Under the pieces are notes generated by a model. That model made no database searches, was not told the DNA's origin, and worked only from the letters and a program-made list of their open reading frames with translations. A program made the position numbers and the translations under genes. DNA of 64,000 nucleotides from Candidatus Micrarchaeota archaeon (GTDB lineage Archaea; B1Sed10-29; JAJSAI01): positions 953 to 64,952 of the forward strand of contig CAZVAJ010000003.1 of the NCBI GenBank assembly GCA_964625085.1, given 5' to 3'. Position 1 is the stretch's first letter; each line of letters starts with the position of its first letter. Of this stretch, positions 8,645 to 51,177 are shown piece by piece.

Positions 8645-10656
8645 CCAAAGTCCGGAAACGGGACGGTAAGATAGTAAAGTTTGATATAACCAGAATAGAG
8701 AAAGCAGTGGCAAAAGCATTCAGCGCAACAGGCACAAAAGGTAACGCAAGCAGGATAGCAAAAGAAGTGAAAAAACAGCTTGACAAAAGATTCAAGGACA
8801 AACCTCCTTCTGTTGAAGAAATCCAGGACCAAGTTGAGCGAATGCTTGTACAAAAAGGATTGTACGAAACAGCAAAAGCGTACATAATCTACAGGCATGA
8901 GCACGCTAAGAAAAGAGAGTCAAAGATTGCTTTAGGCGTAACAGACGACCTGAAGCTGTCATACAATGCAGTAAAACTTCTGCACGCCAGGTACCTGAAA
9001 AAGGATGATCTGGGAAGGGTTATCGAAACTCCTGATATGATGTTCAGAAGAGTTGCAGCAGACCTGTCTTTGGCAAGCAACAAAAAAAGCAGGAAACAGG
9101 ACAAGGAAGAATTTTATCACGGGATGCGATCGCTTGACTTTATCCCAAACTCTCCCACCCTAATGAACGCAGGCAGGAGACTTCAACAACTTGCAGCCTG
9201 CTTTGTAGTTCCGGTGGAGGATAGTCTTGAAGGTATTTTCAGCGCGCTCAAAGCAGGAGCGCTGATACACCAGTCTGGAGGGGGAACAGGGTACTCCTTC
9301 TCAAGACTCAGGCCAAAAGGGGATATTGTAGGCTCAACAAAGGGGGCTGCAAGCGGCCCAGTGTCCTTCATGAGAATATTTGACGTGGCCACTGATGTGA
9401 TAAAACAGGGTGGCATGAGAAGGGGCGCTAACATGGGCGTGCTAAAAGTAGACCACCCAGACGTCCTGGAATTCATAACAGCAAAAAAAGGAGGAAAGGC
9501 CCTGCAGAACTTCAACATTTCGGTCGCGGTCACGGACAAGTTCATGCAGGCTGTGGAAAGAAACAAAGAATACTATCTGATCAACCCGCGGGATAACTCA
9601 AAAGTCAGGAAACTTAACGCCCGCAAGGTGCTTGACCTCATCGGCTTACTCTCCTGGGAAACAGGAGACCCAGGCATACTTTTCCTTGACAGAATAAACA
9701 AGGACAATCCCACCCCAAAGCTGGGAAGAATAGAAGCGACCAACCCTTGTGGCGAAGTCCCGTTACTGTCATGGGAAGCATGCAACCTCGGGTCAGTGAA
9801 CCTGTCTAACATGATTACTGGAACAACAGGGAAAGGAAAAGTTGACTGGGATAAACTGCGTAGCACAGTACGCGTAGGGATCAAGCTTCTTGACAACGTG
9901 ATAAGCCGTTCAAAATTCCCCTTACCAGAAATAAGAAGAGCAGTAGAAGGAAACAGGAAAATAGGCCTGGGAGTAATGGGTTTTGCAGACGCGCTCGTAA
10001 AACTCGGCGTCAGGTACGACAGCAAGAAAGGCATTGAAACAGCTGAAAAAATAATCCGGTTCATTTCAAAAGAATCTGCGGAAATGTCAAGAGAGCTTGC
10101 AGAAGAGAGAGGCGTTTTCAAAAACTGGAAACAAAGTAAGTACTACCCGCATGAAAAAAGGCGGAACGCAACGGTCAATGCAATCGCACCAACAGGAAGC
10201 ATAAGCACGATCGCAGGATGCTCGTTCAGTATAGAACCATTCTACTCAATAGCATACAAAAGGCATGTTCTGGGTGGAGAAACGCTGGTGGAAGTAAACC
10301 AACTTTTCCTTGAAGTAGCTAGGCAAGAAGGCTTTTACTCTGAAGAACTGCTCAAGAAAATGTCTGTGTACGGAAGCGTGCAAGAAGTGCAAGAGATACC
10401 CAAAAAGTGGAGGGCTGTTTTCAGAACAGCCATGGACATCAGCCCAGAATGGCACGTGAAAATGCAGGCCGCGTGGCAGAAACATGTTGACAACGCGGTC
10501 TCAAAAACAATAAACCTCAGACCAGATGCCACTCCTGAAGAAGTGAGCAAGATAATCAAGCTAGCGCACAAGCTCGGGTGCAAAGGACTAACAGTTTACA
10601 GATACGGAGCAAAAGAGCACCAAGTTCTCACGGTCTGCAAAAAATGCACGGTCTAG
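8638..10656 (+). CDS. nrdJ: Ribonucleoside reductase, class II (adenosylcobalamin-dependent) with N-terminal ATP-cone
   Basis: 672 aa; ATP-cone VRKRDGKIVKFDITRIEKAV; active-site region NPCGE; class II RNR core similarity; C-terminal CKKC. Confidence 0.9.
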   Translation: MVTKVRKRDGKIVKFDITRIEKAVAKAFSATGTKGNASRIAKEVKKQLDKRFKDKPPSVEEIQDQVERMLVQKGLYETAKAYIIYRHEHAKKRESKIALGVTDDLKLSYNAVKLLHARYLKKDDLGRVIETPDMMFRRVAADLSLASNKKSRKQDKEEFYHGMRSLDFIPNSPTLMNAGRRLQQLAACFVVPVEDSLEGIFSALKAGALIHQSGGGTGYSFSRLRPKGDIVGSTKGAASGPVSFMRIFDVATDVIKQGGMRRGANMGVLKVDHPDVLEFITAKKGGKALQNFNISVAVTDKFMQAVERNKEYYLINPRDNSKVRKLNARKVLDLIGLLSWETGDPGILFLDRINKDNPTPKLGRIEATNPCGEVPLLSWEACNLGSVNLSNMITGTTGKGKVDWDKLRSTVRVGIKLLDNVISRSKFPLPEIRRAVEGNRKIGLGVMGFADALVKLGVRYDSKKGIETAEKIIRFISKESAEMSRELAEERGVFKNWKQSKYYPHEKRRNATVNAIAPTGSISTIAGCSFSIEPFYSIAYKRHVLGGETLVEVNQLFLEVARQEGFYSEELLKKMSVYGSVQEVQEIPKKWRAVFRTAMDISPEWHVKMQAAWQKHVDNAVSKTINLRPDATPEEVSKIIKLAHKLGCKGLTVYRYGAKEHQVLTVCKKCTV

Positions 10657-10731
10657 TCAGCCCCCTCACTTTGCCGGTTTCTAAAAGTTTAAAAACAAGA
10701 ACAAACTATACCATACTGGTGAAAGACATGG

Positions 10732-10950
10732 GTGGCCGTCTTTGTCAAAGGAACATCATCGCATGACCAGATACTGCTATTTCTAGCTGAACATGGACCC
10801 ATGACACCAACACAGATTATTGAAAGAACAGGGATTCCTGAAAGAACAGTCAGACACGCTCTCAGAAAACTGAAGGAAAAGGAAGCCCTAAAATACCATA
10901 AAAGCCTTGATGACCTTAGGTACACTGTGTACTCTCTTGCGGAGGGGTGA
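10732..10950 (+). CDS. Small winged-helix DNA-binding protein (MarR/TrmB-like), GTG start; 3' end overlaps tRNA-Cys by 10 nt
   Basis: LLFLAEHGPMTPTQIIERTGIPERTVRHALRKLKEKEAL is a clear HTH-wing pattern; stop TGA at 10948-10950 lies inside tRNA acceptor stem. Confidence 0.6.
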   Translation: MAVFVKGTSSHDQILLFLAEHGPMTPTQIIERTGIPERTVRHALRKLKEKEALKYHKSLDDLRYTVYSLAEG

Positions 10951-11012
10951 CAGAGTGGTTATGTGACCGCCTGCAAAGCGGTTTTACTCGGGTTCAAATC
11001 CCGACCCCTCCT
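10941..11012 (+). tRNA. tRNA-Cys (anticodon GCA), intronless; CCA encoded (to 11015)
   Basis: Acceptor GGAGGGG/CCCCTCC, discriminator U73, anticodon arm ACCGC-CTGCAAA-GCGGT (GCA), T arm TCGGG-TTCAAAT-CCCGA, 3-bp D stem with G13.A22. Confidence 0.85.
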
Positions 11013-11040
11013 CCACCTAACACAAAAGAAAGTGAGAACA

Positions 11041-12420
11041 ATGAAAGTATACAACACACTAAGCCGATCAAAAGAAGAGTTTACTCCTCTGCACACGGGC
11101 AGAGTAAACATGTTCGTGTGCGGACCCACGGTTTACGACTACAGCCACATAGGGCACGCCAGAACGTACTCGTATTATGATATACTAGCAAAGTACCTGA
11201 AGCACAAGGGACTCTCAGTATTTTACGTGATGAACATAACAGATGTCGACGACAAGATCATAAAACGGGCGCGGGAGCAGGGAATAAAACCTCTTGACTT
11301 AGCCAGGAAATACGAGAAAGAGTTCTTTAAGGACATGAATGCATTGAACATTAACACAGTCAACCTGTTCCCAAGAGCGTCAGAACACATTACAGAAATA
11401 ATTGAACAGATAGAAGGACTGATATCAAAAGGATTCGCGTACGTCACTCCTTCTGGAAACGTGTATTACGACATAAGCAAGTTCCCAGACTACGGGAAAC
11501 TGGGCAGAAAAAACCTTGAAGAACTTTCAGAACACAGAATAGAACCAGACCCTGAGAAAAAGAATCCCGCAGACTTTGCGTTGTGGAAAATAAAAGATGA
11601 AGAAATAGGTTGGGATTCTCCGTGGGGCAAAGGAAGGCCCGGATGGCATATCGAGGACACGGCCATCACGGTAACTTATCTTGGACCTCAGTACGACATT
11701 CACGGAGGGGCAATAGAACTCGCGTTTCCTCACCACGAAGCTGAAATAGCCCAGGCAGAAGCGTACACGGGAAAAAAGCCTTTGGTCAGGTACTGGGTGC
11801 ACACAGGGCTCCTGCTTGTTGAAGGTAGAAAAATGTCTAAGTCCTTGGGCAACTTTATAACAGTCCGCGAGGTTTTAGAAAACCACCGGGCTGAAGCTCT
11901 AAGACTTTATTTTGCCATGTCCCATTACAGGTCAGAGATGAACTACTCAGAAAAAGGCCTGGAACAAGCAGAAGAAACACTTTCCACAATATACGACTCC
12001 ATGATGCTGGCAGAGTCAACAGAGGGTAAAGGGAGCATAGAAGCAGAAGTCAAAAAAGCAGAACAAGACTTCAGATCAGCGATGGAAGATGATCTGAACA
12101 CGCCTAAAGCTGTTTCCGTGTTAGTGCAAGCCTTAAGAAACGCCAACAGGACAATAGAAAAGGAAGGGGGGCTTAACGCTAACAGCAAAAGAATGCTGTT
12201 GTCATTTGCAGGAACCGCAGGAGAAATATTGGGCATACTTCCAAGAAAGTTTAACAGCCAACATGTGATTGAAAGTCTGGTAGAATACTTGCTTAGTGAA
12301 AGACAAGCTGCAAGAAACAAAAAAGACTACGCCAGATCAGACGAGATACGCAACACTCTAATAAAAGCGGGAATAACCGTAAAAGACACTAAGTTTGGCA
12401 CACTATGGAGGATAAGGTGA
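11041..12420 (+). CDS. cysS: Cysteinyl-tRNA synthetase (class I)
   Basis: HIGH motif [15 protein letters not shown] motif KMSKSLGNF; start set at MKVYNTL (11041) because track ORF start at 10963 lies inside the tRNA-Cys gene. Confidence 0.92.
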
Positions 12421-12653
12421 AAAAAATGATGGAACGAATGCGTGGAGTGATAGTCAAAGTGGACTTGACACCACACCCGATGGAAGAGAACCACTACATA
12501 GAATGGACAGAACTAATAGAAGAAGACGGGAAAGTCCACAGAAAGTTCCTAAGGCCAGGTGACAAACCTGAAGCAAGGTTCCCTGTCCAATACTCCGAGT
12601 CACTAAAAGCAAGAGAGTACTGTAACGTGCACGGGCTTTGGAAAAAAGAGTGA
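12405..12653 (+). CDS. Superoxide reductase (neelaredoxin/desulfoferrodoxin centre II)-like protein, N-terminally truncated (82 aa)
   Basis: C-terminal [11 protein letters not shown] matches SOR Cys/His ligand motif (YCNIHGLWENE in P. furiosus); TPHP...ENHYIEW matches the two central His ligands; no EKHVP motif; in-frame stop 15 nt upstream excludes longer N-terminus. Confidence 0.6.
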
Positions 12654-12726
12654 AAGAGACTAGCACTGGAAAAGCCTGCACGAAACCCTTTTAAAAGACA
12701 GTCTTCAAAATTAATCTTGTCTCATC

Positions 12727-12827
12727 TGCGGGGATGGCAGAGCGGCTATGCAACCGGCTGCAGTTACTCTTGCTTCCAACGAGAGGAACAGGGACCGGTA
12801 GACGGGAGTTCAAATCTCCCTCCCCGC
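12727..12827 (+). tRNA. tRNA-Cys (anticodon GCA) with ~30-nt intron at canonical 37/38 position
   Basis: 101 nt; acceptor GCGGGGA/TCCCCGC, U73, D stem GCA/TGC with G13.A22, anticodon stem ACCGG...CCGGT with loop CTGCAG-[intron 12771-12800 containing hairpin CTCTTG-cttccaa-CGAGAG]-A, T arm GGGAG-TTCAAAT-CTCCC; no CCA encoded. Confidence 0.7.
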
Positions 12828-12833
12828 TCTGAA

Positions 12834-13757
12834 TCACCCAAAGCCGGTTTTTATGAGCCCATCTGCTCTCTCAATATACCCCTTAAGGTCTTCTCTTGTT
12901 AAAGCACTCCACGTTTTCCATTTAGTAGGCCCGTTTTTCTCGTACGCTGAGATCACAGCAGGCTTTTTTCCCTTTTCCTCAGCAGCAGTCCTAACAAGGA
13001 ACCCCTTTCTCTCTGCAAGCTCATAAACCAGCTTATACAAATCACGGTACCTGTAATCCCTAAGCAGATGATGATCAAGAAAAACATTACGCACATTCTT
13101 AACTATTCTTTCAGTGTTCAGAACAGCTCTTGCAAGGTTATAGTATGATACAAGATACCCTAACAAGTACGTGGGAAACCCGTCAAGAAACAGCACATCA
13201 GGCTTCTGCTTTATCAGGTAATCTGCCTGTTCTTCTGAAACCGGGCCGTCAAGATCACTGGAGTGAACCAGAGTCTTGCCCTCTGCCTTTATGGTGGTTA
13301 TTAAAACCCAGCCAAGCTTGGTGCCCGGAGTCCCATGCCAAGCTGGCTGAGAAAACCTTAGCTTGACCCCATTAAAATCAAACTCGTTCCCGTCAGCAAT
13401 CCTAACATCAGCATTCAGATCGTCAAGAAGAAATCTTGCCCTGGACTTCTGAGAATGATTAATCTTATTTTCAGGATCTTTCACGAGAAGAGTTTTACCC
13501 TTGTAAAGCCCAGGTTCTGGGATATGGTGATCATAATGATAGTGAGAGATGACTATCACATCACTTTGCTTTATTGCTCTTCTTAAAACAGCAGAGTATC
13601 TTGCTTCTGCTGCAAGCCGTTTAGTCAAACTCCAGGGAAACGAGCCCGCCTCAAACGCCACGCCAGGATCTATAAGAATCTTCATGCCCTGTGCTTCAAC
13701 CTGCACACAGCTTGACTTCACCCCAAAGGAATCAAACGCTAACAAGCTGAATTCCAT
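12834..13757 (-). CDS. Metallo-beta-lactamase fold hydrolase
   Basis: HxHxDH motif ISHYHYDHH; 307 aa. Confidence 0.8.
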   Translation of the reverse strand: MEFSLLAFDSFGVKSSCVQVEAQGMKILIDPGVAFEAGSFPWSLTKRLAAEARYSAVLRRAIKQSDVIVISHYHYDHHIPEPGLYKGKTLLVKDPENKINHSQKSRARFLLDDLNADVRIADGNEFDFNGVKLRFSQPAWHGTPGTKLGWVLITTIKAEGKTLVHSSDLDGPVSEEQADYLIKQKPDVLFLDGFPTYLLGYLVSYYNLARAVLNTERIVKNVRNVFLDHHLLRDYRYRDLYKLVYELAERKGFLVRTAAEEKGKKPAVISAYEKNGPTKWKTWSALTREDLKGYIERADGLIKTGFG

Positions 13758-13833
13758 GCCTCTAAGAACAGACGCTGTTATTTATTCATTACCAATGAAA
13801 AACTTTTAATTATACGGACACGAAAAAAACAGG

Positions 13834-15000
13834 GTGAGAAAAATCAATCTAGACAAGTTCAAGAGGATAGAAAGAGAAACAAAAGAAATCAACATTGATC
13901 CTTTACAGACAGGAGGCAAGATCCCTGAATTCACCAAGCCCAGCTTGATCACTTGGCTTGACGGTTACTCTATCTGTGATTTCTGCCCCGGAAGCTTATT
14001 CGATCTGAAAACACCCCCTGTAAAACTTTTTGTTGAGGAGATACTACCCGAATTCCTCGGGTGCGATCAAACTAGAATAACCCACGGAGCAAGAGAAGGA
14101 AAATATGCCATCATGCACGCCGTGACCAAACCTGGAGACTGGATCGTCGTTGATGCTAACGCTCACTACTCAAGCATCGTGGCAGCAGAGAGAGCCAAGC
14201 TCAACATAAAGAAAACAGAAAAGCCTGCAGAACCAGAATACAAGATAAATCCAGAAGACTACAAAAAAGCGCTTGAGGAGATTGAAGACGGCACAGGCAA
14301 TCCAGCTGCCCTCGCACTACTAACCTACCCTGACGGAAGCTACGGAAACCTTCCTGACGCTAAAAAAATCTCCGAAATATGCAAGAGCAAAGGAGTCCCT
14401 TTGATCCTAAACGGAGCATACTCAGTTGGCAGAATGCCGCTGAACATGAAAGAGTTAGGAGCTGACTTTATTGTTGGATCAGGACACAAGAGCATGGCTG
14501 CAAGCGGACCAGTGGGAGTGCTTGGTACAACAGAGGAGTATGCTGAAAAACTCTTCCGAAGATCAGAGTACTACCCTGCAAAGGAGGTTGAAATGCTCGG
14601 GTGTACTGTAAGAGGAATGCCTGCAGTGTCACTAATGTTATCCTTCCCGTTCGTGCAGGAAAGAGTAAAACACTGGGAAAAAGAGGTGGAAAACGCAAGA
14701 TGGTTCTCTGAACAAATGGAAAAGCAGGAAATTGCAGTACAGTACGGAGAAAAGCCGCACAATCATGACCTCATGTTTTTCATGTCAGAAAAACTATACC
14801 AGATTTCCAAAAAACACAAGAAAAGAGGGTTCTTCCTATACCAAGGGCTTAAGAAAAGAGGAATATCAGGAATAAAACCAGGGCTAACAAAACAGTTCAA
14901 GCTGAGCACATACGGCCTTGAAAAAGAAGACCTGGAAAAGGTTATAAACGCGCTCCTGGAAATAATTGAAGAAAACAACCACTTTCTCAACGACCAATAA
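13834..15000 (+). CDS. pscS: O-phosphoseryl-tRNA(Cys):Cys-tRNA synthase (SepCysS), PLP-dependent
   Basis: N-terminal INIDPLQTGG...DGYSICDFC and ITHGAREGKYAIMHAVTKPGDWIVVDANAHYSSIVAAERA match SepCysS family; PLP-lysine motif GSGHKSMAASGP. Confidence 0.85.
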   Translation: MRKINLDKFKRIERETKEINIDPLQTGGKIPEFTKPSLITWLDGYSICDFCPGSLFDLKTPPVKLFVEEILPEFLGCDQTRITHGAREGKYAIMHAVTKPGDWIVVDANAHYSSIVAAERAKLNIKKTEKPAEPEYKINPEDYKKALEEIEDGTGNPAALALLTYPDGSYGNLPDAKKISEICKSKGVPLILNGAYSVGRMPLNMKELGADFIVGSGHKSMAASGPVGVLGTTEEYAEKLFRRSEYYPAKEVEMLGCTVRGMPAVSLMLSFPFVQERVKHWEKEVENARWFSEQMEKQEIAVQYGEKPHNHDLMFFMSEKLYQISKKHKKRGFFLYQGLKKRGISGIKPGLTKQFKLSTYGLEKEDLEKVINALLEIIEENNHFLNDQ

Positions 15001-15007
15001 AAGTAAC

Positions 15008-15079
15008 GGGCTCGTAGATCAGTGGAAGATCGCTTGCTTCGCAAGCAAGAGGTCGGGGGTTCAAATCCCCCCGAGTCCA
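15008..15079 (+). tRNA. tRNA-Ala (anticodon CGC)
   Basis: Acceptor GGGCTCG/CGAGTCC with the Ala identity G3.U70 wobble, A73; D arm GATC-AGTGGAA-GATC; anticodon arm CTTGC-TTCGCAA-GCAAG; T arm GGGGG-TTCAAAT-CCCCC. Confidence 0.9.
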
Positions 15080-15213
15080 CTAATAAGGGCGCCTTCCCCG
15101 CCCTTATGCGAAAAAGCCTAAAAGGGCTTGCTGCAAATTATCAACTCTTCCGAACCACAACCAAAACGTTTGTTGAAACATTCAAAAAGATCCTTAAACT
15201 GGTGTGAGGACGT

Positions 15214-16248
15214 TTACCTGCCAAGACGCCGCTTTATTCTTTTCCTCATCTCTTCTCCTTTAGCGTGAAGTTTGTTGAACTGCTTAACACTCACAGGAAT
15301 GTCCTTACCAATCTTCATGCCTTTAACCATCCTTTGAACAGCCTGCCTGTCAGTACCAATATACTCCGCAATCTCGTCAGCAGTAGGAATCCTGCCAAGA
15401 TCCCCTGCAAGTTGTCGGATAGCCCGACCCATAGCATCCTGAATGACTGGATTTGTCTCACGAGAGCGGATGTGAGCTCCTCTCATCCTTCTAAAGAACT
15501 CCTGAGGATCCTTGTTAACATCATGATATACTGCCTCTTCTCTTGAATAGAACTTAAGAGATTCCAAAGTCTGTTTTATCACTTCACTCTTTTGCATGGT
15601 AGAAGAACCAAGACGCACGCGCAACCTTTTTTTAGTTTCTTTTTCCAACTCTTCTTTCGTGGGCGGCCTGCCAAGTTGTTCAACAAGTGCGGAGTACGTT
15701 GCTTTTATGTCCTCTGACAGCTTTTTGTGGTACTCCTCCCTACTGTCATATTCAAGTGGTGCAGAGAGTCCCAGCCTCTGCATGTTCAACGATGCTCGTC
15801 GGGGGGAAACCCTGCTTCCTAATGCAGCTGAAAGTTCTTTACTGCTTGGAGGTCTGCCGAGCTCCTGCGTCAGCTGCTCATGAGCTTTACGCAATTCATC
15901 ATCACTGACAGCAGTCCTCTGACCTACTATCCTTACGCCTTCTGCTTTCTTCCATTTCTTTTTCTTCAGCTCAGCAGGGAGTTCCTCTTCCACAAGAACA
16001 ACATACTCTGGCGGAGGCAGCACCCTCTTGTGAAATTCTTTGAGGTAATCCTGAAGCACTGGATCATCGACCTTGTGAATCACGTCCAAAATAAGCTGAT
16101 CCAAAGGAACATGATACTCACGGGAAATGCGCCGCAATTTCCTTTCAACCTTCCTGCGATTATACTCTCCTCTACGCCAGTCTTCTGAAAGTTCTTCCAA
16201 AATAGCAGACAGAGCATCAGATACTGTCATAATTGGCCCTCTTACCAA
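15214..16248 (-). CDS. Protein with three sigma-70 region-3-like helix-turn-helix repeats (ELGRPPT-xEEL motif x3)
   Basis: QELGRPPSSKELSAALG, EQLGRPPTKEELEKE, GDLGRIPTADEIAEYIGTDRQAVQRMVKGMK resemble RpoD region 3.0 (ELGREPTPEELA). Confidence 0.5.
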   Translation of the reverse strand: MVRGPIMTVSDALSAILEELSEDWRRGEYNRRKVERKLRRISREYHVPLDQLILDVIHKVDDPVLQDYLKEFHKRVLPPPEYVVLVEEELPAELKKKKWKKAEGVRIVGQRTAVSDDELRKAHEQLTQELGRPPSSKELSAALGSRVSPRRASLNMQRLGLSAPLEYDSREEYHKKLSEDIKATYSALVEQLGRPPTKEELEKETKKRLRVRLGSSTMQKSEVIKQTLESLKFYSREEAVYHDVNKDPQEFFRRMRGAHIRSRETNPVIQDAMGRAIRQLAGDLGRIPTADEIAEYIGTDRQAVQRMVKGMKIGKDIPVSVKQFNKLHAKGEEMRKRIKRRLGR

Positions 16249-16318
16249 TATTAACGCAAGAGGGAGTATAAAAAATCACAGGATAACTCTTTTTAATAAC
16301 CCTTTCCTTTCCTTGAAC

Positions 16319-17536
16319 ATGATAAGCCTAAAAGGACTTCCAGGACCTAAAGCAAAGATATTCGCTAAAACCATGGGATTATTAAACGGAGGACATTCAC
16401 AACCTTACCCTGCGGTACTCTCAGGCGAAGGGGAAGGATGCTATGTCAAGGACATTGACGGAAACATGTTTCTTGACATGACCTCCCTCCTGTGCACGGC
16501 ACCTCTTGGATTCAATCACCCCAGGCTCCTGAAAATCGTGAGAAAGTATTCTAGTAGGGCACCCTTGAAAATTGCCGGGCAAGATTTTTACGTGCAGGAA
16601 CACCTTACCCTTTTAGAAGAGCTTGGTAGCATAACTCCAAAAGAGATTAATGCAGGGTTTATATGCAACTCTGGAGCAGAAGCTGTTGAGAACGCGCTGA
16701 AAATCGCGTTCTATAATAAACGGGGAAACAGCGGCATATCCTTGCACAATGCGTTCCACGGAAGAACTCTTGGAGCACTTTCCTTAACAAACTCAAAAAG
16801 TGTTCATAAGAACCGTTTCCCAAGTTTTGCGTTCCACAGGCTCCCGTTCAACCAAGAAAGTGTAGTGGAATTTGACAGAATACTTTCGCAAGAAGGAGAA
16901 GAAAACATTTCTTTCCTGATAGTAGAACCAGTGCAAGGAGAAGGAGGATACATTCCTGCAGGAACCTGGCTAAAACAGCTTGTTGACCTTGCTAAAGCAA
17001 GCGGTGTCAGGGTAATATCTGATGAAATTCAAGCAGGACTTGGAAGAACAGGCGAATGGTGGAGTATTCAGAACTATGACGCCCAGCCTGACATAATAAC
17101 AAGTGCTAAAGCCCTGCAGGTCGGGGCCACAATGGCAAACAGAAAACTATTCCCACCCTCTGGAGCAATGTCCAGCACATTCGGAGGAGGAGACATACTC
17201 GCAATGGCTGTAGGCACTGAAACGATCCGGGTTATAAAGGACGAAAAACTGCTTGATAATGTCAAAAAAATGGGGCGGGTTATCCTTGAAAGGCTCCAGG
17301 AGTACGAGGACAATATTTCAAGAATTGAAGGCATTGGTCTTATGATCGGCCTGCAACTGCACTCAGAAAAATCAAGGGACAAGCTTGTAAGAGAACTTTT
17401 CAAGAGAAAGGTGTTTGTTCTTCCAGCAGGGAAAAGAAGGGTCAGGCTAGCGCCAGCGTATATTATTGGGGAAACTGAGATTGACAAGTTTTTTGAAGCT
17501 TTTGACCCTGCTTTGAAAACAACAACAAAGCACTGA
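16319..17536 (+). CDS. Class III PLP-dependent aminotransferase (acetylornithine/GABA aminotransferase family)
   Basis: DEIQAGLGRTGEWW, PLP-Lys region IITSAKAL, GEGG motif; start set to ATG 16319 (MISLKGL) to avoid overlap with upstream gene. Confidence 0.8.
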   Translation: MISLKGLPGPKAKIFAKTMGLLNGGHSQPYPAVLSGEGEGCYVKDIDGNMFLDMTSLLCTAPLGFNHPRLLKIVRKYSSRAPLKIAGQDFYVQEHLTLLEELGSITPKEINAGFICNSGAEAVENALKIAFYNKRGNSGISLHNAFHGRTLGALSLTNSKSVHKNRFPSFAFHRLPFNQESVVEFDRILSQEGEENISFLIVEPVQGEGGYIPAGTWLKQLVDLAKASGVRVISDEIQAGLGRTGEWWSIQNYDAQPDIITSAKALQVGATMANRKLFPPSGAMSSTFGGGDILAMAVGTETIRVIKDEKLLDNVKKMGRVILERLQEYEDNISRIEGIGLMIGLQLHSEKSRDKLVRELFKRKVFVLPAGKRRVRLAPAYIIGETEIDKFFEAFDPALKTTTKH

Positions 17537-17563
17537 AAAAAATACCTTGAAAAGAAAAAAGGC

Positions 17564-18079
17564 TCATCTTCTGAATCTGAATAATTTCTTCAGTCTTTCT
17601 GAAAGGGTGAGCGGCGGTTTTATGAATATCTTTTTCTCAGGAGTGCCTGGCTCTCTTTCCATCACTGGGAGTTTCTGATGAGAAAAGACTCTTCCTGTTT
17701 TTTTGTACCCCATTTTCTCATGAAACACTTCTTTTCCAGGCTCTGAAGCCAACCACATCCTCTTGTCTCCAAATTCCAACTGGGAGAATGTACTCAATGC
17801 AGAAGCAAGTCCCCTTCCTTTGTACTTCTTGTCTATCTCAACGTGAGCCATTCTCTCTCCCTTGTCAGAATGATGCACGTTAAGGTAACCGATTCTTTTT
17901 CCCTCACCTGCTTCAGGATTGTAAACGGTTATCGTGTACGTTACTCCTCCAGCAGGCCATACGTCTGTTTCAGTGCGCCAGAACACGAATACTTCTTTTG
18001 ACTTTGGCTCTCCGTAAACGAGAAGAGGTTTCCCGTACTCTTTTTCTTCCTTCTTTGTCCAAAATTTCTTGGACTTCAT
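17564..18079 (-). CDS. GNAT-fold (acetyltransferase-like) protein, translationally coupled (ATGA overlap) downstream of SepRS
   Basis: Motif A-like HVEIDKKYKGRGLASAL; 171 aa; start overlaps sepS stop by 4 nt. Confidence 0.45.
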   Translation of the reverse strand: MKSKKFWTKKEEKEYGKPLLVYGEPKSKEVFVFWRTETDVWPAGGVTYTITVYNPEAGEGKRIGYLNVHHSDKGERMAHVEIDKKYKGRGLASALSTFSQLEFGDKRMWLASEPGKEVFHEKMGYKKTGRVFSHQKLPVMEREPGTPEKKIFIKPPLTLSERLKKLFRFRR

Positions 18080-19650
18080 ATTCTCTCCTTCTGTATCTCT
18101 ACGCTCACGAATACAGGGCCTTTTAGTGAAAGGCGTTTCTTGTGCGCAGTAACATACCTCTGCACCAGAGGATGGACTGAAATGTTTATGTCTTGTCCTG
18201 ATTTCACGTTCTTGAACTGAATTATCTTGTGAAATTCTGTCATGGCCTCTGCTTCTGATGCCACGAATGCACCTATTGCGTCCCTGAAAGAGATTCCTGT
18301 CTTAACTCCTTTTTCCAACGCGTTCTTGACCAAATCATTCTGGAAAGCGCCGGCTGACGGAGGTAATGCCATAACGTTTCCATCGTACACTATCACTTCA
18401 TTTAAAGCAGCTGGACCGCACAAACTTTTTCCCTCCTCTTTTTCAAACACCCACACTGTAACGTGGTGTTTTCCAAGGTCGCGGTCGTACACCTTGTACC
18501 TTGCAGGAGCCTGTGAGTTCCCGTACTCCAAAATGGCATTTGATACACTTGACGCGATAAGCTTGCCTTCTGGAGCTGAAGGCTTCTTGTCAATGTAAAC
18601 ATGCTCTGCTATTTCATGGTCTGAAAGAACAAAAGGAGCAAGAGCCTGCTTGTAAACCAGCTGCCTAACGTCTTTGTATCCATGTTGAATCATTGCAATC
18701 CGTTCCATGCCCATCCCGAAATTGAACACAGGAATGTTTATGCCGTAATTTGAAAGCGCGATTGGGGAATACATTCCAATGTCCGCAATTTCAATCTTCT
18801 TTTTACCATACCTCGCGAAAACTTCCTCTTCCATTCCCTTAGCGTAGTACTTTGAAGTGGCTTTTTTCCTCACGAATTCTACTTCACTAAAACCGATTTC
18901 CTCAAGCACTTTCTGTGTTATCTCTCTGCCCGCGGAAAGGCTCATGTTCTCGTGAGCTATTACTGCAGAAGCACCAAGATGCGCTCTCAGGTGGTGGGCA
19001 TCTTCTTTTTGCTCTCTCCTGAATCTGTACCCTATAGAAAACAGAGCTACTGGCGTAAACCTTTTCTTGAGAACTTCCTGCAGGGTAAGGAACCATCCTG
19101 CAGTCATATGGGACCGTAAGGTCTGTGTGCTTGGAACTGGCTTAAGTTCAGAAAACTCTCTGAAAACGTCTGACACAAGGGCTGATGCCTGTTCTTCCTC
19201 GATTCCCAGCTTTTTAACAAGTTCTTCTAGGAAATCGTCTCCTTCTATTTTTCCTTCCCTGTACGCCCGCAGGATTTCTTGAAGAACATCATATCCTGAA
19301 AATCCGGGGATTATACTAGATATTTTTTCCTTTTTCTCAGGAGAAAGGCCTATATCCGGCCTTTCAAGCCCTGCAAGGTAGTAGACCCTGTCAAGTATAA
19401 CCGGCGCTTCTGGCCCGTACTGGTGGTACACATGGGAAACGTCTATTATTGTCTTGTTTATAGCTTCTTCAAAACCGTGTTTTATGAACGCGGCCCTTAC
19501 CTTCTGCCTTAGCTCTTCAAGAGGGTGAGGAGTATTGTTTTTCCCAAGGGTTATCTTTGGCCCTGTTTCAAGCAAAAGCTTTGATGACTCTGTCCAAGTC
19601 TTTTCAAAATCTTGCTCTGACAGTTGCTTTATTTTTTCAGGATCCCACAC
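18076..19650 (-). CDS. sepS: O-phosphoseryl-tRNA synthetase (SepRS), class II
   Basis: 524 aa; class II motif 2 FSIGYRFRREQKEDAHHL, motif 3 GMGMERIAM; LRSHMTAGWFLT, DRVYYLAGLERPDIGLS, KEEGKSLCGPAALNEVIVYDGNVMALP and C-terminal GPVFVSVEIQ match SepRS rather than PheRS-alpha. Confidence 0.9.
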   Translation of the reverse strand: MWDPEKIKQLSEQDFEKTWTESSKLLLETGPKITLGKNNTPHPLEELRQKVRAAFIKHGFEEAINKTIIDVSHVYHQYGPEAPVILDRVYYLAGLERPDIGLSPEKKEKISSIIPGFSGYDVLQEILRAYREGKIEGDDFLEELVKKLGIEEEQASALVSDVFREFSELKPVPSTQTLRSHMTAGWFLTLQEVLKKRFTPVALFSIGYRFRREQKEDAHHLRAHLGASAVIAHENMSLSAGREITQKVLEEIGFSEVEFVRKKATSKYYAKGMEEEVFARYGKKKIEIADIGMYSPIALSNYGINIPVFNFGMGMERIAMIQHGYKDVRQLVYKQALAPFVLSDHEIAEHVYIDKKPSAPEGKLIASSVSNAILEYGNSQAPARYKVYDRDLGKHHVTVWVFEKEEGKSLCGPAALNEVIVYDGNVMALPPSAGAFQNDLVKNALEKGVKTGISFRDAIGAFVASEAEAMTEFHKIIQFKNVKSGQDINISVHPLVQRYVTAHKKRLSLKGPVFVSVEIQKERI

Positions 19651-19656
19651 CTTTTC

Positions 19657-20352
19657 TCACCTACAAACCGGGCAGTCCACCCTCTTTTTTATCCTTACTT
19701 TTTCCATGCTGCTGGTATTTAACCCATACCCTACAAGCACACTCTGCTGGTTTGTCAACAGCAGAACAGTGGAGATGGATGCAGCAACCTTGGCGGTCTC
19801 AGGCAATACACCTATTTGCCTTGCTCCTGGCGCGCACGAAGACTCTCTCACTTTTCTGCCTGGAAAAACGCACTCCAAGCAGGGACCTCCTGCAGGAAAG
19901 TATGCTGACATTCCGGAAAATCCTGCGCACGCAGACAGTATATAATCCTTGCCATACTTTACAGTAAGCAGGTTAAGTTCAAACCTTAAGCTCATACTGT
20001 CAAGCCCGTCCATCACAACATCGCAAGAGGATATTGTCTTTTCCGCATTCCTAAAATCACTGTCAACCGTGCGAACAATAATATTTTCGTTTATCCGCTT
20101 AAGCGTTAAGGATAGTGCTTTGGTTTTCTGCAGTCCTTTCTGGTCTTGAAAGAACTCCTGTGTTCCTATGTTCGGTGTTTCCACCTTATCAAGATCCACT
20201 AGTGTGATTTTACTGAAACCGTTCCGCGCAAGATTGATCGCGATGTTTGACCCTATAGCGCCTGTCCCAACCACGCACACGTGCTTTTTTCTCACGTTCT
20301 CAAAAGCTTCTCCCAAGAGAAGTTTTTGCCTGTCAAGCTCTGTACTGCTCAT
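19657..20352 (-). CDS. ThiF/MoeB/HesA-family E1-like enzyme with C-terminal CxxC
   Basis: Nucleotide-binding VCVVGTGAIGSNIAINLARNGFSKITLVDLDKVETPNIGTQ; C-terminal CPVC. Confidence 0.85.
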   Translation of the reverse strand: MSSTELDRQKLLLGEAFENVRKKHVCVVGTGAIGSNIAINLARNGFSKITLVDLDKVETPNIGTQEFFQDQKGLQKTKALSLTLKRINENIIVRTVDSDFRNAEKTISSCDVVMDGLDSMSLRFELNLLTVKYGKDYILSACAGFSGMSAYFPAGGPCLECVFPGRKVRESSCAPGARQIGVLPETAKVAASISTVLLLTNQQSVLVGYGLNTSSMEKVRIKKRVDCPVCR

Positions 20353-20971
20353 TCAAAACCCTCCTTATTTCTTCTGCTTTCTTCTTTCCTAATCCGGGTA
20401 CTGTCATGAGCTGTTTCACGTCCGCGTTTAATACTTCCTGAACATTGCCAAACCTTTCAAGCAGTTCCACTGCCAGCTTAGGGCCGATGCCTGGAAGGGA
20501 TTCTATCACCATCCTCTGGTAATCCTTCAAGGTTACTGCTTTTTTTCCCTGCTTTGCCTTAACAGGCTTGTTCAGTTCCAGTTGCTCGCGCCTGGCAATC
20601 AAGGCAAGTGTTTTTGAAGTGTCAGAAAGATTTCTTGAGAAGTAAACAGGAACACCGGAGGTAAGCATGATATGAGAAAGAGCTCCTCTTATTGCGTTTT
20701 CGTGTAGTCTGCCGAGGTATCCTGGATTTCCTTCTATCACAAGCAGGGGTTTAGAGTATGCCTGCTTGAGCCTGTCAATCTGATCAAACAACCTGCCGTC
20801 AACAAGAGAGTTCACAAAGTCTTCTGCTGTTTTCCGTTCTACTGCAACGTCTTCGGAAAGGACATAATCTGCGATATCAAGAGTTTTGATGATCACAATG
20901 CACTCTTTTTTCAGCATTTCAGGCAAGCCTGATGCTGTTTCTCGGTTGTCAGCGTAGACAGTTGGCTTCAT
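20333..20971 (-). CDS. hef: Hef nuclease module (XPF/ERCC4 nuclease + HhH2) as separate ORF
   Basis: ERK motif AVERKTAEDF, C-terminal HhH2 LPGIGPKLAVELL...VPGLGKKKAEEI. Confidence 0.85.
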   Translation of the reverse strand: MKPTVYADNRETASGLPEMLKKECIVIIKTLDIADYVLSEDVAVERKTAEDFVNSLVDGRLFDQIDRLKQAYSKPLLVIEGNPGYLGRLHENAIRGALSHIMLTSGVPVYFSRNLSDTSKTLALIARREQLELNKPVKAKQGKKAVTLKDYQRMVIESLPGIGPKLAVELLERFGNVQEVLNADVKQLMTVPGLGKKKAEEIRRVLNEQYRA

Positions 20972-22407
20972 ACAAACTCCCCTACTTTCTTCTGAGGGTC
21001 TTTAAGTGATCTTTTCATTTTTTTCTCTTTATTATAACTGCTCCAGTAGTAAACCTGGTCTAGTGTGTTTCGGGTCATTAGCACGTAGATCTTGCCCGGC
21101 CCGTGCCTGCCAGTCCTGCCTTTTCGTTGTATCATCCTTATTGCGCTGGGCACTGGCTCGTAAAATACCGCAAGATCAACTGAAGGAATGTCCAGACCCT
21201 CTTCTCCTATGGAAGTCGCCACGAGCACTTTTATCTCTCCAGCCCTGAACTTTTCAAGTATCTCTGCCTGCTCTTTTTGGGAATAGCCCTTTTCTTTGGC
21301 CCTGCTTGCTTGGCCTATAAACCTCTTGCACGAAAACCCTTTTTGCGTCAGAAAATGTTCTATCCTGCCAGCAGTGTCCCTGTAATTGGAAAACACAATG
21401 GCCTTTTCTGCTTTTTCTGCCGAAAGGATCTCTGCCACCTTGCCAAGCTTCGGGTGTTCAGGCGCCTGTTCTATCAGCCTCATGGCTTCCTTAACTTTCG
21501 GGTCTTCATAAATCCGGGCAGCTGCCTTTGAACCATCCTCTGAAAGAGACCGGTAGTACGCAAGTGCTTGTTCCGGGCCCTGTGTTACAAACGAAGAGAT
21601 CAAGTAGTCAAGTTTTATGACCACTGCAATTCGGGAAATGATCTGGTAAAACGCAGGGTTTTCTGAAACTCTTTTACTAAGACTTTTCTGAAGCTTGAGC
21701 AGGTCTGTCTTTGTTCTTGCGCGCACGTTTTTTTCCTTAAGCCAGTTAGCATGTTCTTTTCTAACCTGTTTCAACATTCTAAAAGGCTGTTTGTATTCTT
21801 CTGGAAAGGAAAGTTCGACTATCTTCATCTTTTTCTCGTGAACGTATTTTGCCACGTCAGCATCTGATTCTGTTCTTGTTTCAACATGCACTATGCCAAG
21901 GTTCTTTTTCACTTCTTCTATTTTCTTTTTGTCACTGCCTGGAGACGCAGTAAGCGCAAGGCACACGGCATTGTCACGGTTTTTGTAGTACTCTGATGCT
22001 ATGCTAACGTAAGCGTAGTCCCCTACCGCCCGGTGGGCTTCATCAAAAACCACGAGAGAATACTCGGAAAGGTCAATGATCCCTTTAGCCAGATCATTTT
22101 CTACGCACTGGGGAGTAGCGCACACAATCCTTGAACGAGAGTAGGCATCTTGCCGCTTGTCCGGGATTAGGAGGCCTGTGACAACTTCAACTTCATTTAT
22201 TCCAAGGGTTTCCTGAATGCTTTTAGCATGCTGTCCCACCAGTGGCCTGCTGGGAGCCAAGAACAACACTTTTCCTTCTTTTAATTTTTCTTTTATGACA
22301 AGCATTGCAATGAAAGTTTTGCCAAGACCTGTTGGAAGCACCACCAACGTGCTCCCCTTTTCAAGAACATTCTTTGCTATGCTCTCTTGATATTCTCTGG
22401 GGCGCAT
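20968..22407 (-). CDS. hef: Hef helicase module (SF2 DEAH helicase), separate ORF overlapping nuclease ORF by 4 nt
   Basis: Walker A LPTGLGKT, DEAH VFDEAHRAVG, motif VI QRKGRTGR. Confidence 0.88.
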   Translation of the reverse strand: MRPREYQESIAKNVLEKGSTLVVLPTGLGKTFIAMLVIKEKLKEGKVLFLAPSRPLVGQHAKSIQETLGINEVEVVTGLLIPDKRQDAYSRSRIVCATPQCVENDLAKGIIDLSEYSLVVFDEAHRAVGDYAYVSIASEYYKNRDNAVCLALTASPGSDKKKIEEVKKNLGIVHVETRTESDADVAKYVHEKKMKIVELSFPEEYKQPFRMLKQVRKEHANWLKEKNVRARTKTDLLKLQKSLSKRVSENPAFYQIISRIAVVIKLDYLISSFVTQGPEQALAYYRSLSEDGSKAAARIYEDPKVKEAMRLIEQAPEHPKLGKVAEILSAEKAEKAIVFSNYRDTAGRIEHFLTQKGFSCKRFIGQASRAKEKGYSQKEQAEILEKFRAGEIKVLVATSIGEEGLDIPSVDLAVFYEPVPSAIRMIQRKGRTGRHGPGKIYVLMTRNTLDQVYYWSSYNKEKKMKRSLKDPQKKVGEFV

Positions 22408-23365: not shown

Positions 23366-24076
23366 ATGAAAAAAGAAGAATTCAAAAAAGTGTGGGAAGG
23401 AGTCTTCACACCTTACACCATTGATAATCTCCTCTGGCTCATCAGAAGGTATTGTATTGACGGGCTAGAAGGATGCATATCAACAGGCAAAGAAGCTGAT
23501 GTTTACGCAGCGTTAGCTCAGGGTAGCGAGAGAGTGGCAGTCAAGATATACCGTGTTGAAACAAGCTCATTCAGTGACATGGCAGCGTACATAGAAGGTG
23601 ATCCCAGGTTCGAAAAGGTGAAAAAGGACAAACGAAGCTTGGTGGAAATGTGGGCCCGGAAAGAATTCAGGAATCTAACAGAAGCGAGAGAAGCTGGAGT
23701 GAGAGTACCTGAACCTTTATGCGTTCGGAAAAACGTGCTTGTCATGGAATTCATAGGGGAAGAGAATACACCCGCACCAACCCTAAATGACACAGGCCCT
23801 TTAAACCCAGAAAAAGAAGTCAGGACCATGACGGACTGGGTCAAGAAGCTTTACTGCAGGGATCTCGTTCATGCTGACCTGAGCGAGTTTAATATTCTCG
23901 TTAGCGGAGAAGAGCTTGTGCTTATTGACATGGGGCAGGCTGTTAGCGTGAAGCACCCTAAAGCAAGAGAGTTCTTAGAGAGGGATCTTGCAAACATACA
24001 GAAGTATGCTGAAAAAAACGGCATAAAATTTGACTCAAAAAGTGTACTGAATCAGATGTTAGAGGAGAAAAAATGA
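23366..24076 (+). CDS. rio1: RIO-type serine/threonine protein kinase (Rio1)
   Basis: Catalytic loop LVHADLSEFNILV, metal-binding IDMGQAV; start at ATG 23366 (MKKEEF) preferred over track start 23336. Confidence 0.85.
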   Translation: MKKEEFKKVWEGVFTPYTIDNLLWLIRRYCIDGLEGCISTGKEADVYAALAQGSERVAVKIYRVETSSFSDMAAYIEGDPRFEKVKKDKRSLVEMWARKEFRNLTEAREAGVRVPEPLCVRKNVLVMEFIGEENTPAPTLNDTGPLNPEKEVRTMTDWVKKLYCRDLVHADLSEFNILVSGEELVLIDMGQAVSVKHPKAREFLERDLANIQKYAEKNGIKFDSKSVLNQMLEEKK

Positions 24077-24717
24077 AGCAAATCAAGGCAGTATTGTTTG
24101 ATGTTGATGGGACGCTTGTAGACGTCAGGTGCCTGCTAGAACCGTTTTACAAGGCGTGTGATGAGCTGGGAGTCATGAAAATCTCTGAAGAGACCTTCTT
24201 CTCCAAACTTGTAGGGCACAGGCCAAAGGAAAAGCTAAAAGAACTTCTTGAAGATGTGAGCGAAGAGAAGATAAACAGGCTATACCAAAAGTTCAAAGAG
24301 GAGTACCTCATGTCTGCAGAAAACTGCAAACTGCTTCCAGGCGCAAAACAGGTTCTAAGAGAACTAAAAAATAGAGGATACCTTGTAGGGATCGTGACAA
24401 CAAAAGCAAGAGACACTGCACGGGCAGTCCTCAACTCTCATGACTTAGAATATGACGTGCTTGTTTCAGCAGAAGACGTGAAAAAGATCAAGCCCGACGC
24501 AGAACCTGTGAAAAAGGCAGCGGAAAAACTAGGAGTAAAAGCAGAGGAATGCGTCGTTGTAGGAGACCACGTGTTTGACGTCTGTTCTGCTAATCAGGCC
24601 GGAGCTGTTTCAGTTGGCGTGTTAACAGGAGTCTCTTCAAAAAAGAAACTATCAGAAGCAGGAGCAAAGTTTATAATACCAGACCTCACCAAACTTTTGG
24701 AAGTCCTAGAGGGCTGA
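24073..24717 (+). CDS. HAD-superfamily hydrolase (phosphoglycolate phosphatase-like)
   Basis: Motif I FDVDGTLVD, motif IV VGDHVFD. Confidence 0.8.
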   Translation: MKQIKAVLFDVDGTLVDVRCLLEPFYKACDELGVMKISEETFFSKLVGHRPKEKLKELLEDVSEEKINRLYQKFKEEYLMSAENCKLLPGAKQVLRELKNRGYLVGIVTTKARDTARAVLNSHDLEYDVLVSAEDVKKIKPDAEPVKKAAEKLGVKAEECVVVGDHVFDVCSANQAGAVSVGVLTGVSSKKKLSEAGAKFIIPDLTKLLEVLEG

Positions 24718-36806: not shown

Positions 36807-37635
36807 TTATAAAACCTTTTGCATGCGCTCTTCAGCTTCTGTTCTGTTAAAACCTGAAAGGGGAACAAACACCGGAAAACCTTTTCCAAAGTACTTGAAT
36901 GACTCTTCCAACTCAGTTTTCATGTAAGGGAGGATTAGGGCAAGAGCTTTTTCTAGTTCTGCAGCTTCGAAAAGCTCTTTGTCAGGATACCAATTTATTT
37001 TCTTTCCAGATGCCCATTTTTTCAGCATACTAGGCCGTTCTTTTCCGACAAGCGAAATTTCCAGCCCCCTTCTCATCACCATCCAAGCGGCAAGCAGTCC
37101 AAAATCATCCTCCGCAAGGGCCACTGCTTTTGCTCCTGCAGTCCCGTAAGGCAATCCCCCTGGCCCTTTGAATGTTTCAGAAAATAGGTATGCTTTTCCT
37201 TTGAATATTTCTATGCCCACCTGCTGTTCCGGATTCTTCAGCCTGACCTTCAGCCCTAATTCTTTCACAATCCTTTCTCCAACCAGTTCGTTAACCTGCT
37301 GTGAAGTAAGGTTAAACGTCTTATCAAGCCTTTGGGTCCTAACCGCAAAAGTTTTCCCAGGCTCACACAGCTTGACTGCTTCTTCTGCAATCTTATCAAT
37401 ATTTAGGTCCAGTTCAACTGCAGGGGAATAGGAAGATACCCCAAAAACCTTGGACAGTTTATCCAATGCTACTTTTTCATCCCCTCTAACAATTATCCTC
37501 CAGTACTTGTTACTGATCTTGTGATTTGGGAGAACCCGCTGGATGTTAGAAGCAAGAACCTTTATGAAACGCCCTCGCGTTGGCTCTGCCTTGGTATAAA
37601 TTTCTGAGTGTCTTACGAGTATAATAACACACCAT
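36807..37635 (-). pseudogene. thiI: ThiI-like tRNA-modification gene fragment (N-terminal ferredoxin-like + THUMP), 5' frameshift and degenerate PP-loop; probable pseudogene or split-gene partner
   Basis: Track ORF 36807-37466 starts at TTG; in-frame upstream 75 codons (no ATG/GTG/TTG) encode VIILVRHSEIYTK...RFIKVLASNIQRVL matching ThiI N-terminus (MKFIIKLFPEITIK...RFIKILTGNIRNVL); an ATG GTG at 37635-37630 is +1 out of frame (extra T at 37629). PP-loop position reads ALAEDDFG instead of SGGxDS; protein ends ~85 aa later. Confidence 0.5.
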
Positions 37636-51162: not shown

Positions 51163-51177
51163 CAATCTGGCATATGA

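Follow-up and report, generated by a model that had tools for sequence, protein, structure and literature searches.

Why do the genes of two different routes to Cys-tRNA lie side by side in one archaeal locus, and do the genes scattered among them take part in the pathway? The question arises from a stretch of 64,000 nucleotides (nt) of contig CAZVAJ010000003.1 (assembly GCA_964625085.1, Candidatus Micrarchaeota archaeon), referred to here in its whole length as the window. As a preliminary description of its sequence had proposed, the direct route (CysRS) and the indirect route (SepRS and SepCysS) are encoded together with two tRNA-Cys(GCA) genes, all five between positions 10941 and 20352. 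We concluded that the locus, in a gene-dense genome of DPANN (Iainarchaeota-like) type, is probably an ordinary system for making Cys-tRNA by two routes, a loosened form of a cluster type that has already been published, and that the neighbouring genes are probably not components of the pathway. Two features are specific to the lineage: cysS is co-located with the indirect route, and the two tRNAs are split, the one with A at position 37 (A37) standing with cysS and the one with G at that position (G37) with SepCysS.

Enzymes and tRNAs of the two routes

The gene map (Table 1) was built from an open reading frame (ORF) listing, tRNA scans and profile searches, and the three enzymes were scored against NCBIfam equivalog cut-offs. 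The protein of 524 amino acids (aa) scored 464.9 bits with TIGR00470 (cut-off 380.65) and 77.9 bits with the pheS model, and the solved SepRS structures 2odr, 2du7 and 2du3 matched it at E ~1e-111 over residues 2-522, compared with 1e-13 for PheRS-alpha, indicating that the protein is SepRS rather than PheRS-alpha, as had been proposed. Asn310-x-Gly312 is invariant in a 16-sequence alignment; the alignment to 2odr reaches residue 522, and the match to PF18006 (SepRS_C) is weak. Of the m1G37-recognition element (A. fulgidus Ile444 and the next helix), the helix region is present, without the bacterial-type deletion. Judged from its sequence, the protein is predicted to charge tRNA-Cys with O-phosphoserine (Sep).

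The 388-aa protein, which the preliminary description had named SepCysS, scored 549.3 bits with TIGR02539 (cut-off 365.25) and 43.6 bits with the SufS model, and matched A. fulgidus SepCysS (2e7i) at E 6.5e-144, whereas cysteine desulfurases reached only ~1e-9, indicating that it is SepCysS and not a generic desulfurase. The lysine motif SGHKSMAASGP and the cysteine motifs YSICDFCP and LGCTVRG align identically with 2e7i; we take the conserved cysteines of the A. fulgidus enzyme to be Cys39, Cys42 and Cys247. No SepCysSn or SepCysSN fusion was found, as residue 13 of the window protein aligns to A. fulgidus residue 3 and only 76 nt lie upstream.

The identification of a class I CysRS also held, with 504.1 bits against TIGR00435 (cut-off 340) and full-length matches to CysRS structures in the Protein Data Bank (PDB) at E 1e-127. 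In the alignment, HIGH falls at residues 36-39 and KMSKS at residues 264-268. If the zinc ligands of E. coli CysRS are, as we assume, Cys28, Cys209, His234 and Glu238, the window enzyme keeps Cys27 and the His and Glu of FPHHEAE and has an Asp aligned to the cysteine of HIEC (WHIEDTAI). The motif WHIEDTAI (residues 202-209) is invariant in the window enzyme, in 10 homologs from archaea (Bathyarchaeia, Thaumarchaeota and Methanotrichaceae among them) and in one bacterial match, whereas other CysRS enzymes have WHIEC. The Asp in place of a metal-ligand Cys looks like a clade-wide substitution on the basis of this alignment, and degeneration was ruled out by its invariance across the clade. The closest homologs outside the lineage are 52-58% identical, and those with a name come mostly from Bathyarchaeia and Thaumarchaeota, not from DPANN; in the context of the next-closest CysRS, no tRNA-Cys was found upstream of the cysS gene.

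Both tRNA-Cys(GCA) genes exist as described, the second after removal of a 30-nt intron, and both have a GCA anticodon and U73 in a cloverleaf (no. 2 once spliced). tRNA-Cys no. 1 lies 26 nt upstream of cysS and has an ortholog, 2 nt different, at the same place in the closest relative (see below). tRNA-Cys no. 2 is miscalled by default: ARAGORN reports a tRNA-Gly(TCC) at 12742-12829, Rfam misses the gene, and ARAGORN with the -i option reports a tRNA-Arg(GCG). When read from the sequence, it has the acceptor stem GCGGGGA/UCCCCGC followed by U73, and the loop CUGCAG is split by an intron (12764-12793) at the canonical 37/38 site, with which a relaxed bulge-helix-bulge, read by hand, is consistent. 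The spliced sequence is called tRNA-Cys(GCA) by ARAGORN and is only 2 variable-loop nt away from the intron-less tRNA-Cys of the relative. This ortholog fixes the mature sequence, and no. 2 is therefore a tRNA-Cys; the CUGCAGA (Cys) of the ortholog and U73 ruled out the calls of tRNA-Gly(TCC) and of tRNA-Arg(GCG) with a 35/36 intron.

The two genes encode distinct isodecoders: A37 and an encoded CCA mark no. 1, no. 2 carries G37 and an intron and lacks the CCA, and three acceptor-stem pairs differ. Between window and relative, each tRNA keeps ~97% identity although the synonymous sites of the two genomes are saturated, indicating that both tRNA-Cys genes are maintained under selection; because of the same saturation, dN/dS between window and relative was set aside and only pN/pS contrasts were usable. 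In the relative, the G37 tRNA is found 18 nt upstream of SepCysS, whereas in the window a metallo-beta-lactamase (MBL)-fold gene, missing at the matching position in the relative, stands between them. The 3' end of the 72-aa winged helix-turn-helix (wHTH) ORF shares 10 nt (10941-10950) with tRNA-Cys no. 1, and the relative has a 72-aa ortholog with the identical 10-nt overlap (9685-9903 vs 9894-9968). Elsewhere in the window, a tRNA-Thr(CGT) with a 57-nt intron (51035-51163, minus strand) was called by ARAGORN -i and by the Rfam tRNA model (57 bits over 129 nt) and missed by default ARAGORN.

The locus in a relative and among other SepRS loci

The closest SepRS homolog is 76% identical, and all remaining ones, from Altiarchaeales, Hadarchaeales or Bathyarchaeia, are at most 47% identical. 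It is encoded on contig JAJSAI010000029.1 of the metagenome-assembled genome (MAG) Dive96_bin4.413 (GCA_024274695.1) from a Southwest Indian Ridge hydrothermal vent, which is classified as p__Iainarchaeota, o__B1Sed1-29 (supplement, PMC9769843). This MAG was the only close relative found, with protein identities of 76-80% for SepRS and SepCysS. In a rough neighbour-joining tree without support values, the SepRS sequences of window and relative stand beside an Undinarchaeota sequence within an Altiarchaeales/DPANN cluster. The tree position and the Iainarchaeota relative agree with the DPANN-like small genome that had been suggested from gene content.

The gene order of the relative, with genes missing from the window in square brackets, is SMC ... 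RNR - wHTH - tRNACys(A37) - cysS - [P-type ATPase - full 122-aa desulfoferrodoxin (Dfx) - DHH] - tRNACys(G37) - SepCysS - tRNAAla - HTH-repeat - [class V aminotransferase] - class III aminotransferase - [IscS-like - NifU] - GNAT - SepRS - ThiF - Hef - CorA - RIO1 - HAD - KH - TopoVI, where HTH is helix-turn-helix. The backbone order, including both tRNA-Cys genes, is common to the two genomes, so that the order is indeed conserved in a relative. The collinearity extends over the whole ~40-kb neighbourhood, indicating that the shared order does not single out the cysteine genes, and the extra genes interspersed in the relative (P-type ATPase, full Dfx, DHH, two class V aminotransferases and NifU) indicate that the spacing is plastic. 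Between SepCysS and SepRS (17271-21380 in the piece of its contig that also holds the wHTH overlap, 9944-12771 in a second piece), the relative encodes a cysteine desulfurase of IscS-like type (385 aa), NifU (143 aa) and a further class V aminotransferase (406 aa), for none of which a tblastn match was found in the window. The GC content is flat, 0.44-0.46 both inside the region and beside it, which speaks against a recent island, and a compositional island was rejected. TATA-like boxes, recognized by inspection only, stand ahead of the wHTH gene, of each tRNA-Cys gene and of SepCysS, which suggests several transcription units.

We then compared the window with other archaea in a tblastn survey of 80 species-level SepRS loci, 33 of which have at least 5 kb on both sides. 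SepCysS was near SepRS in six of the 80 loci (three of the 33), namely that of the relative, those of two Micrarchaeia MAGs, in which SepCysS and SepRS form pairs, and one each from a Woesearchaeota, an Aenigmatarchaeota and an unclassified archaeal MAG. The last three loci show the published operon discussed below: a tRNA-Cys adjoins or lies between SepRS and SepCysS, and the SepCysS of the window is 53-57% identical to theirs. By comparison, cysS lies within 10-14 kb of SepRS/SepCysS in the window and the relative and in 0 of 79 other SepRS loci, and two conserved isodecoders, one adjoining each route, were seen in no other surveyed locus.

Clusters of the indirect-route genes are known from the literature. 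SepRS-SepCysS operons, a compact tRNACys-SepCysSn-SepCysS-SepRS operon and SepCysS with tRNACys and sulfur-metabolism genes have been described (Mukai 2017, PMC5424206 section 10), and in DPANN archaea SepRS is often in one operon with SepCysS and sometimes with tRNACys (PMC5424206 section 10; PMC8762117 section 3.1.2). The suggestion that the window holds an undescribed organisation was therefore abandoned. Like the DPANN operon, the window contains SepRS, SepCysS and the G37 tRNA-Cys; unlike it, the window has SepCysS on the plus and SepRS on the minus strand, with 3 kb (about 6.9 kb in the relative) and unrelated genes between them, three or four in the window, an MBL gene parting the tRNA from SepCysS, and cysS co-located with a second, A37 tRNA-Cys. 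The window thus resembles the DPANN-type cluster, of which it may be a descendant, but it is no operon of that type. The Bathyarchaeota BA2/marine-sediment operon (tRNACys-SepCysSn-SepCysS-SepRS; PMC5424206 section 10) likewise links tRNA-Cys to indirect-route enzymes, whereas the window is without SepCysSn and its genes are not contiguous. As in the dual-route methanogens Methanosarcina mazei and Methanococcus maripaludis, the direct and indirect routes coexist. However, the SepRS, SepCysS and CysRS genes are dispersed in methanogens, whereas the enzymes and both isodecoders of the window lie within ~10 kb, each tRNA physically paired with one route. In M. mazei, the two synthetases SepRS and CysRS favour different tRNACys isoacceptors (PMC9976931; PMC8762117).

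Genes surrounding the pathway

Table 1. Features of the Cys-tRNA region, in window coordinates.
Feature	Position	Strand	Evidence
72-aa winged-helix (ArsR/MarR-like) protein; neighbour	10732-10950	+	Pfam HTH_20, MarR_2, HTH_5, E ~1e-7
tRNA-Cys(GCA) no. 1, A37, U73, encoded CCA	10941-11015	+	ARAGORN; Rfam tRNA 61 bits
cysS, class I CysRS	11041-12420 (longest ORF start 10963)	+	TIGR00435
82-aa 5'-truncated desulfoferrodoxin (SOR-like)	12405-12653	+	PF01880
tRNA-Cys(GCA) no. 2, G37, U73, 30-nt intron, no encoded CCA	12728-12828	+	Spliced sequence, ARAGORN
Metallo-beta-lactamase-fold protein (PRK04286 family); neighbour	12834-13757	-	Profile searches
SepCysS, 388 aa	13834-15000	+	TIGR02539
tRNA-Ala(CGC), G3:U70; neighbour	15008-15080	+	ARAGORN, Rfam
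344-aa HTH-repeat protein; neighbour	15214-16248	-	Pfam sigma70-region-3/HNH-repeat-like modules
Class III aminotransferase (acetylornithine aminotransferase-like); neighbour	~16316-17536	+	PF00202 278 bits
171-aa divergent GNAT-fold acetyltransferase	17564-18079	-	Weak Pfam GNAT matches
SepRS, 524 aa	18076-19650	-	TIGR00470
ThiF/MoeB-type E1-like adenylyltransferase; neighbour	19657-20352	-	PF00899
Hef nuclease and helicase	20333-22407	-	ORF listing, profile searches

Four genes next to the pathway, those for the GNAT, ThiF, class III aminotransferase and SOR-like proteins, had been put forward as accessory factors. The junctions that accompanied this proposal are real: the GNAT start overlaps the sepS stop as ATGA, a 6-nt spacer separates ThiF from sepS, and the SOR-like ORF overlaps the end of cysS, by 16 nt. 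The first two are compact in the relative too. However, the same overlapping gene string takes in the unrelated Hef helicase and nuclease, indicating that tight packing is a property of the genome and not evidence of shared function. The GNAT, class III aminotransferase, SOR-like and CysRS genes were never near SepRS in the 79 other species of the survey, and ThiF was near it outside the lineage only once, in a Bathyarchaeota locus (28% identity, ~10 kb away). With no recurrent association with SepRS, accessory roles for the four genes found no support.

The GNAT protein had been considered a possible SepCysE-like bridging factor. Its family is small: an exhaustive HMMER search of 1.84 billion proteins found 4 representatives (the query and 3 relatives), and a word-indexed homolog search returned the query alone. 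In its two other contexts, on contigs of <1 kb, tandem GNAT copies stand with HAD hydrolases and no SepRS; on a metagenome contig of 995 nt (2-831), one relative is represented by two paralogous copies in tandem, with a HAD phosphatase after them. It is also the fastest-evolving gene of the region, with 36% identity to the relative as against 76-80% for SepRS and SepCysS. The protein scored 24.2 bits with Acetyltransf_10 (threshold 23.6), and the acetyl-CoA loop could be read in the alignment as KGRGLA. Its AF2 model (pLDDT 81) led Foldseek to generic GNATs (E 3e-5, probability 1.0, TM about 0.45), the nearest structures being spermidine acetyltransferase, GCN5 and ElaA. Among PDB matches at E up to 10, no SepCysE appeared for the GNAT profile (acetyltransferases only) or for the wHTH protein (MarR/AdcR wHTH regulators), a search that included no dedicated SepCysE HMM scan. 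No likeness to the SepCysE/transsulfursome of class I methanogens (PDB 3WKR, 5X6B; PMC5688128) was demonstrated in the window, and the 171-aa protein, unlike SepCysE, has a GNAT alpha/beta fold. Sequence, fold, rapid divergence and the lack of association elsewhere were the grounds for rejecting a SepCysE-like factor, and the modelled structure points to a generic, fast-evolving acetyltransferase fold. SepCysE itself occurs only in class I methanogens and a handful of further groups of archaea (PMC5424206), indicating that a bridging factor is no general requirement.

The E1-like CxxC protein had been offered as a source of persulfide sulfur for SepCysS. It scored 123.9 bits with PF00899 (threshold 28.1) and below all NCBIfam equivalog cut-offs, carries CLEC and CPVC motifs, has E. 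coli ThiF as its best structural relative (E 4e-12) and is 57% identical to its ortholog in the relative. No ORF for a GG-terminated ubiquitin-like carrier (55-130 aa) was found in the window. As a generic E1 with no such partner in the window and no cross-lineage adjacency beyond the one 28% match, it was rejected as sulfur donor, a role that is pure speculation. A stand-alone ThiI PP-loop protein (208 aa; 61185-61811, minus strand) and a THUMP protein (219 aa; 36807-37466, minus strand) are encoded 24 kb apart; the two may constitute a split ThiI-type tRNA thiolation enzyme and are plausible ordinary clients for sulfur-relay proteins such as ThiF.

The class III aminotransferase, whose start is probably near 16316 and not at 16127, scored below every NCBIfam equivalog cut-off and has a 73% identical ortholog in the relative. 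The SOR-like ORF does overlap cysS, but it is a truncated desulfoferrodoxin for which no role in the pathway was supported. It covers PF01880 profile positions 24-97 of 98 and, compared with the 122-aa Dfx of the relative, has lost the desulforedoxin domain at the N-terminus as well as the His ligand of EKHVP. Measured against that genome, a deletion removed the gene for a P-type ATPase (644 aa) together with the opening ~40 codons of Dfx. Because the remaining part is 85% identical to the relative (pN 0.14 vs pS 0.68), the truncated protein may still be expressed and under selection; it is probably outside the Cys-tRNA system.

Other genes of the window were also inspected. The third tRNA of the region is tRNA-Ala(CGC), not tRNA-Cys, and the matching position is filled in the relative. 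The 344-aa protein consists of repeated HTH modules ('GRPP..EL') that match sigma-70 region 3 and a homing-endonuclease-associated repeat, which is unusual for an archaeon, and a 36% identical ortholog occupies the same place in the relative. A PALP-family gene (58514-59596), tried as a cysteine synthase, proved to be threonine synthase (TIGR00260, 222 bits vs 167) and was the only pyridoxal phosphate (PLP)-dependent enzyme of this family found in the window. A HAD gene (24073-24717) was rejected as SerB, its best matches being PpaX/phosphoglycolate phosphatase models, all below cut-off. Two domain fusions were seen: an NAD kinase with a C-terminal winged-helix domain (30385-31470, plus strand) and a radical-SAM RaSEA-like domain joined to a DUF5591/ArcS-like domain of the archaeosine pathway (31986-33278, minus strand).

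Probable origin of the clustering and possible roles of the two tRNAs

In an ordinary dual-route system, SepRS would put Sep on tRNA-Cys, and SepCysS, a PLP enzyme with three conserved cysteines, would turn Sep-tRNA-Cys into Cys-tRNA-Cys, amounting to de novo cysteine synthesis on tRNA, while CysRS would attach free cysteine to the tRNA by the direct route, as known from Methanosarcina or Methanococcus maripaludis. The clustering would be the loosened descendant of a DPANN-type tRNACys-SepRS-SepCysS cluster, broken by an inversion and insertions and adjoining a lineage-specific tRNACys(A37)-cysS pair; the GNAT, ThiF, aminotransferase, truncated SOR, MBL, wHTH and HTH-repeat genes would be neighbours without an accessory role. 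For a genome assumed to measure ~1 Mb, a rough estimate puts the chance that five related genes share 10-14 kb at about 1e-7, which makes unrelated placement unlikely. However, three of the five (tRNACys, SepRS and SepCysS) are explained by the known ancestral cluster, leaving essentially one extra co-location event, the tRNACys-cysS pair, whose chance of falling within ~14 kb is roughly 0.03 for the same assumed genome size. Several observations weigh against so plain an account: cysS and a second tRNA-Cys stand beside the indirect route in no other surveyed lineage; their co-location, kept across synonymous saturation, could reflect selection rather than inertia; the IscS-like and NifU genes of the relative lie inside the cluster, so that a link to sulfur supply is conceivable; and the ATGA coupling of sepS and GNAT is kept in both genomes.

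We considered, as an extension of this dual-route explanation, that the isodecoders might be dedicated to the routes, the A37 tRNA being charged mainly by CysRS and the G37 (m1G37-capable) tRNA being preferred by SepRS/SepCysS, a split that would insulate the two routes or regulate them separately. This possibility, which we regard as conceivable but less likely than not, is consistent with the finding that A37 versus G37 is the main difference at known determinant positions (compared by hand), with the conservation of both the A37-cysS and the G37-SepCysS pairings in the relative, with the prevalence of G37 in tRNA-Cys beside SepRS/SepCysS in other lineages (mostly G37, four loci), with the report of m1G37 as a SepRS determinant and with a SepRS anticodon-binding region that aligns without the bacterial-type deletion. 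However, the Woesearchaeota locus has an A37 tRNA-Cys adjoining SepRS, some SepRS enzymes, including that of M. maripaludis, accept A37 tRNAs for charging in vitro (PMC5424206), in M. mazei the archaeal CysRS likewise profits from m1G37, and no Trm5 was identified among the scanned window ORFs. That selection co-located the isodecoder pairs, letting a tiny genome control its salvage of cysteine separately from tRNA-dependent synthesis de novo, is likewise conceivable but on the doubtful side.

Lateral transfer of the region, or of the tRNACys(A37)-cysS module, would account for the closest CysRS relatives outside the lineage being mostly those of Bathyarchaeia and Thaumarchaeota, and it accords with the description of A37 as the 'bacterial type' of tRNACys and with the supposed bacterial origin of archaeal CysRS genes (both PMC5424206). 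Nevertheless, we consider a horizontally acquired cassette improbable: GC is uniform, no mobile-element genes flank the region, the next-closest cysS has no tRNA-Cys in its context, SepRS falls within the DPANN/Altiarchaeales cluster, and with ~40 kb collinear in the relative any transfer predates the split of the two genomes. A functional Cys-tRNA island with new accessory factors, in which ThiF would supply sulfur to SepCysS, GNAT would act as a bridge or on (amino)acyl-tRNA, and the aminotransferase and SOR would contribute, is still harder to credit and seems very unlikely. The compact ThiF-sepS and sepS-GNAT junctions are kept in the relative, no SepCysE or SepCysSn homolog was found, so that a missing partner is conceivable, and the relative has IscS-like and NifU genes in its cluster; but the association is limited to one lineage among the 80 loci, the packing is generic, GNAT is poorly conserved, has generic structural neighbours and has relatives beside HAD genes on short contigs, a bridging factor is not generally needed, ThiF is a generic E1 without a nearby ubiquitin-like partner and with ordinary clients in the ThiI PP-loop and THUMP genes, and the SOR-like ORF is a truncation remnant.

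The ordinary dual-route system therefore remains our preferred explanation: the locus shows a published cluster type in a form specific to this lineage, is made up of known families and reveals no new pathway components. It adds Iainarchaeota, which we did not find named in the main text of a 2022 review (PMC8762117), to the lineages with SepRS and SepCysS, and apart from the pairing of isodecoders it confirms published knowledge. Should each isodecoder's pairing with its route be functional, the locus would offer a compact natural system for the coexistence of direct and indirect aminoacylation on one amino acid, would test whether position 37 (A or m1G) is the switch between them, and would bear on why reduced DPANN genomes keep both routes.

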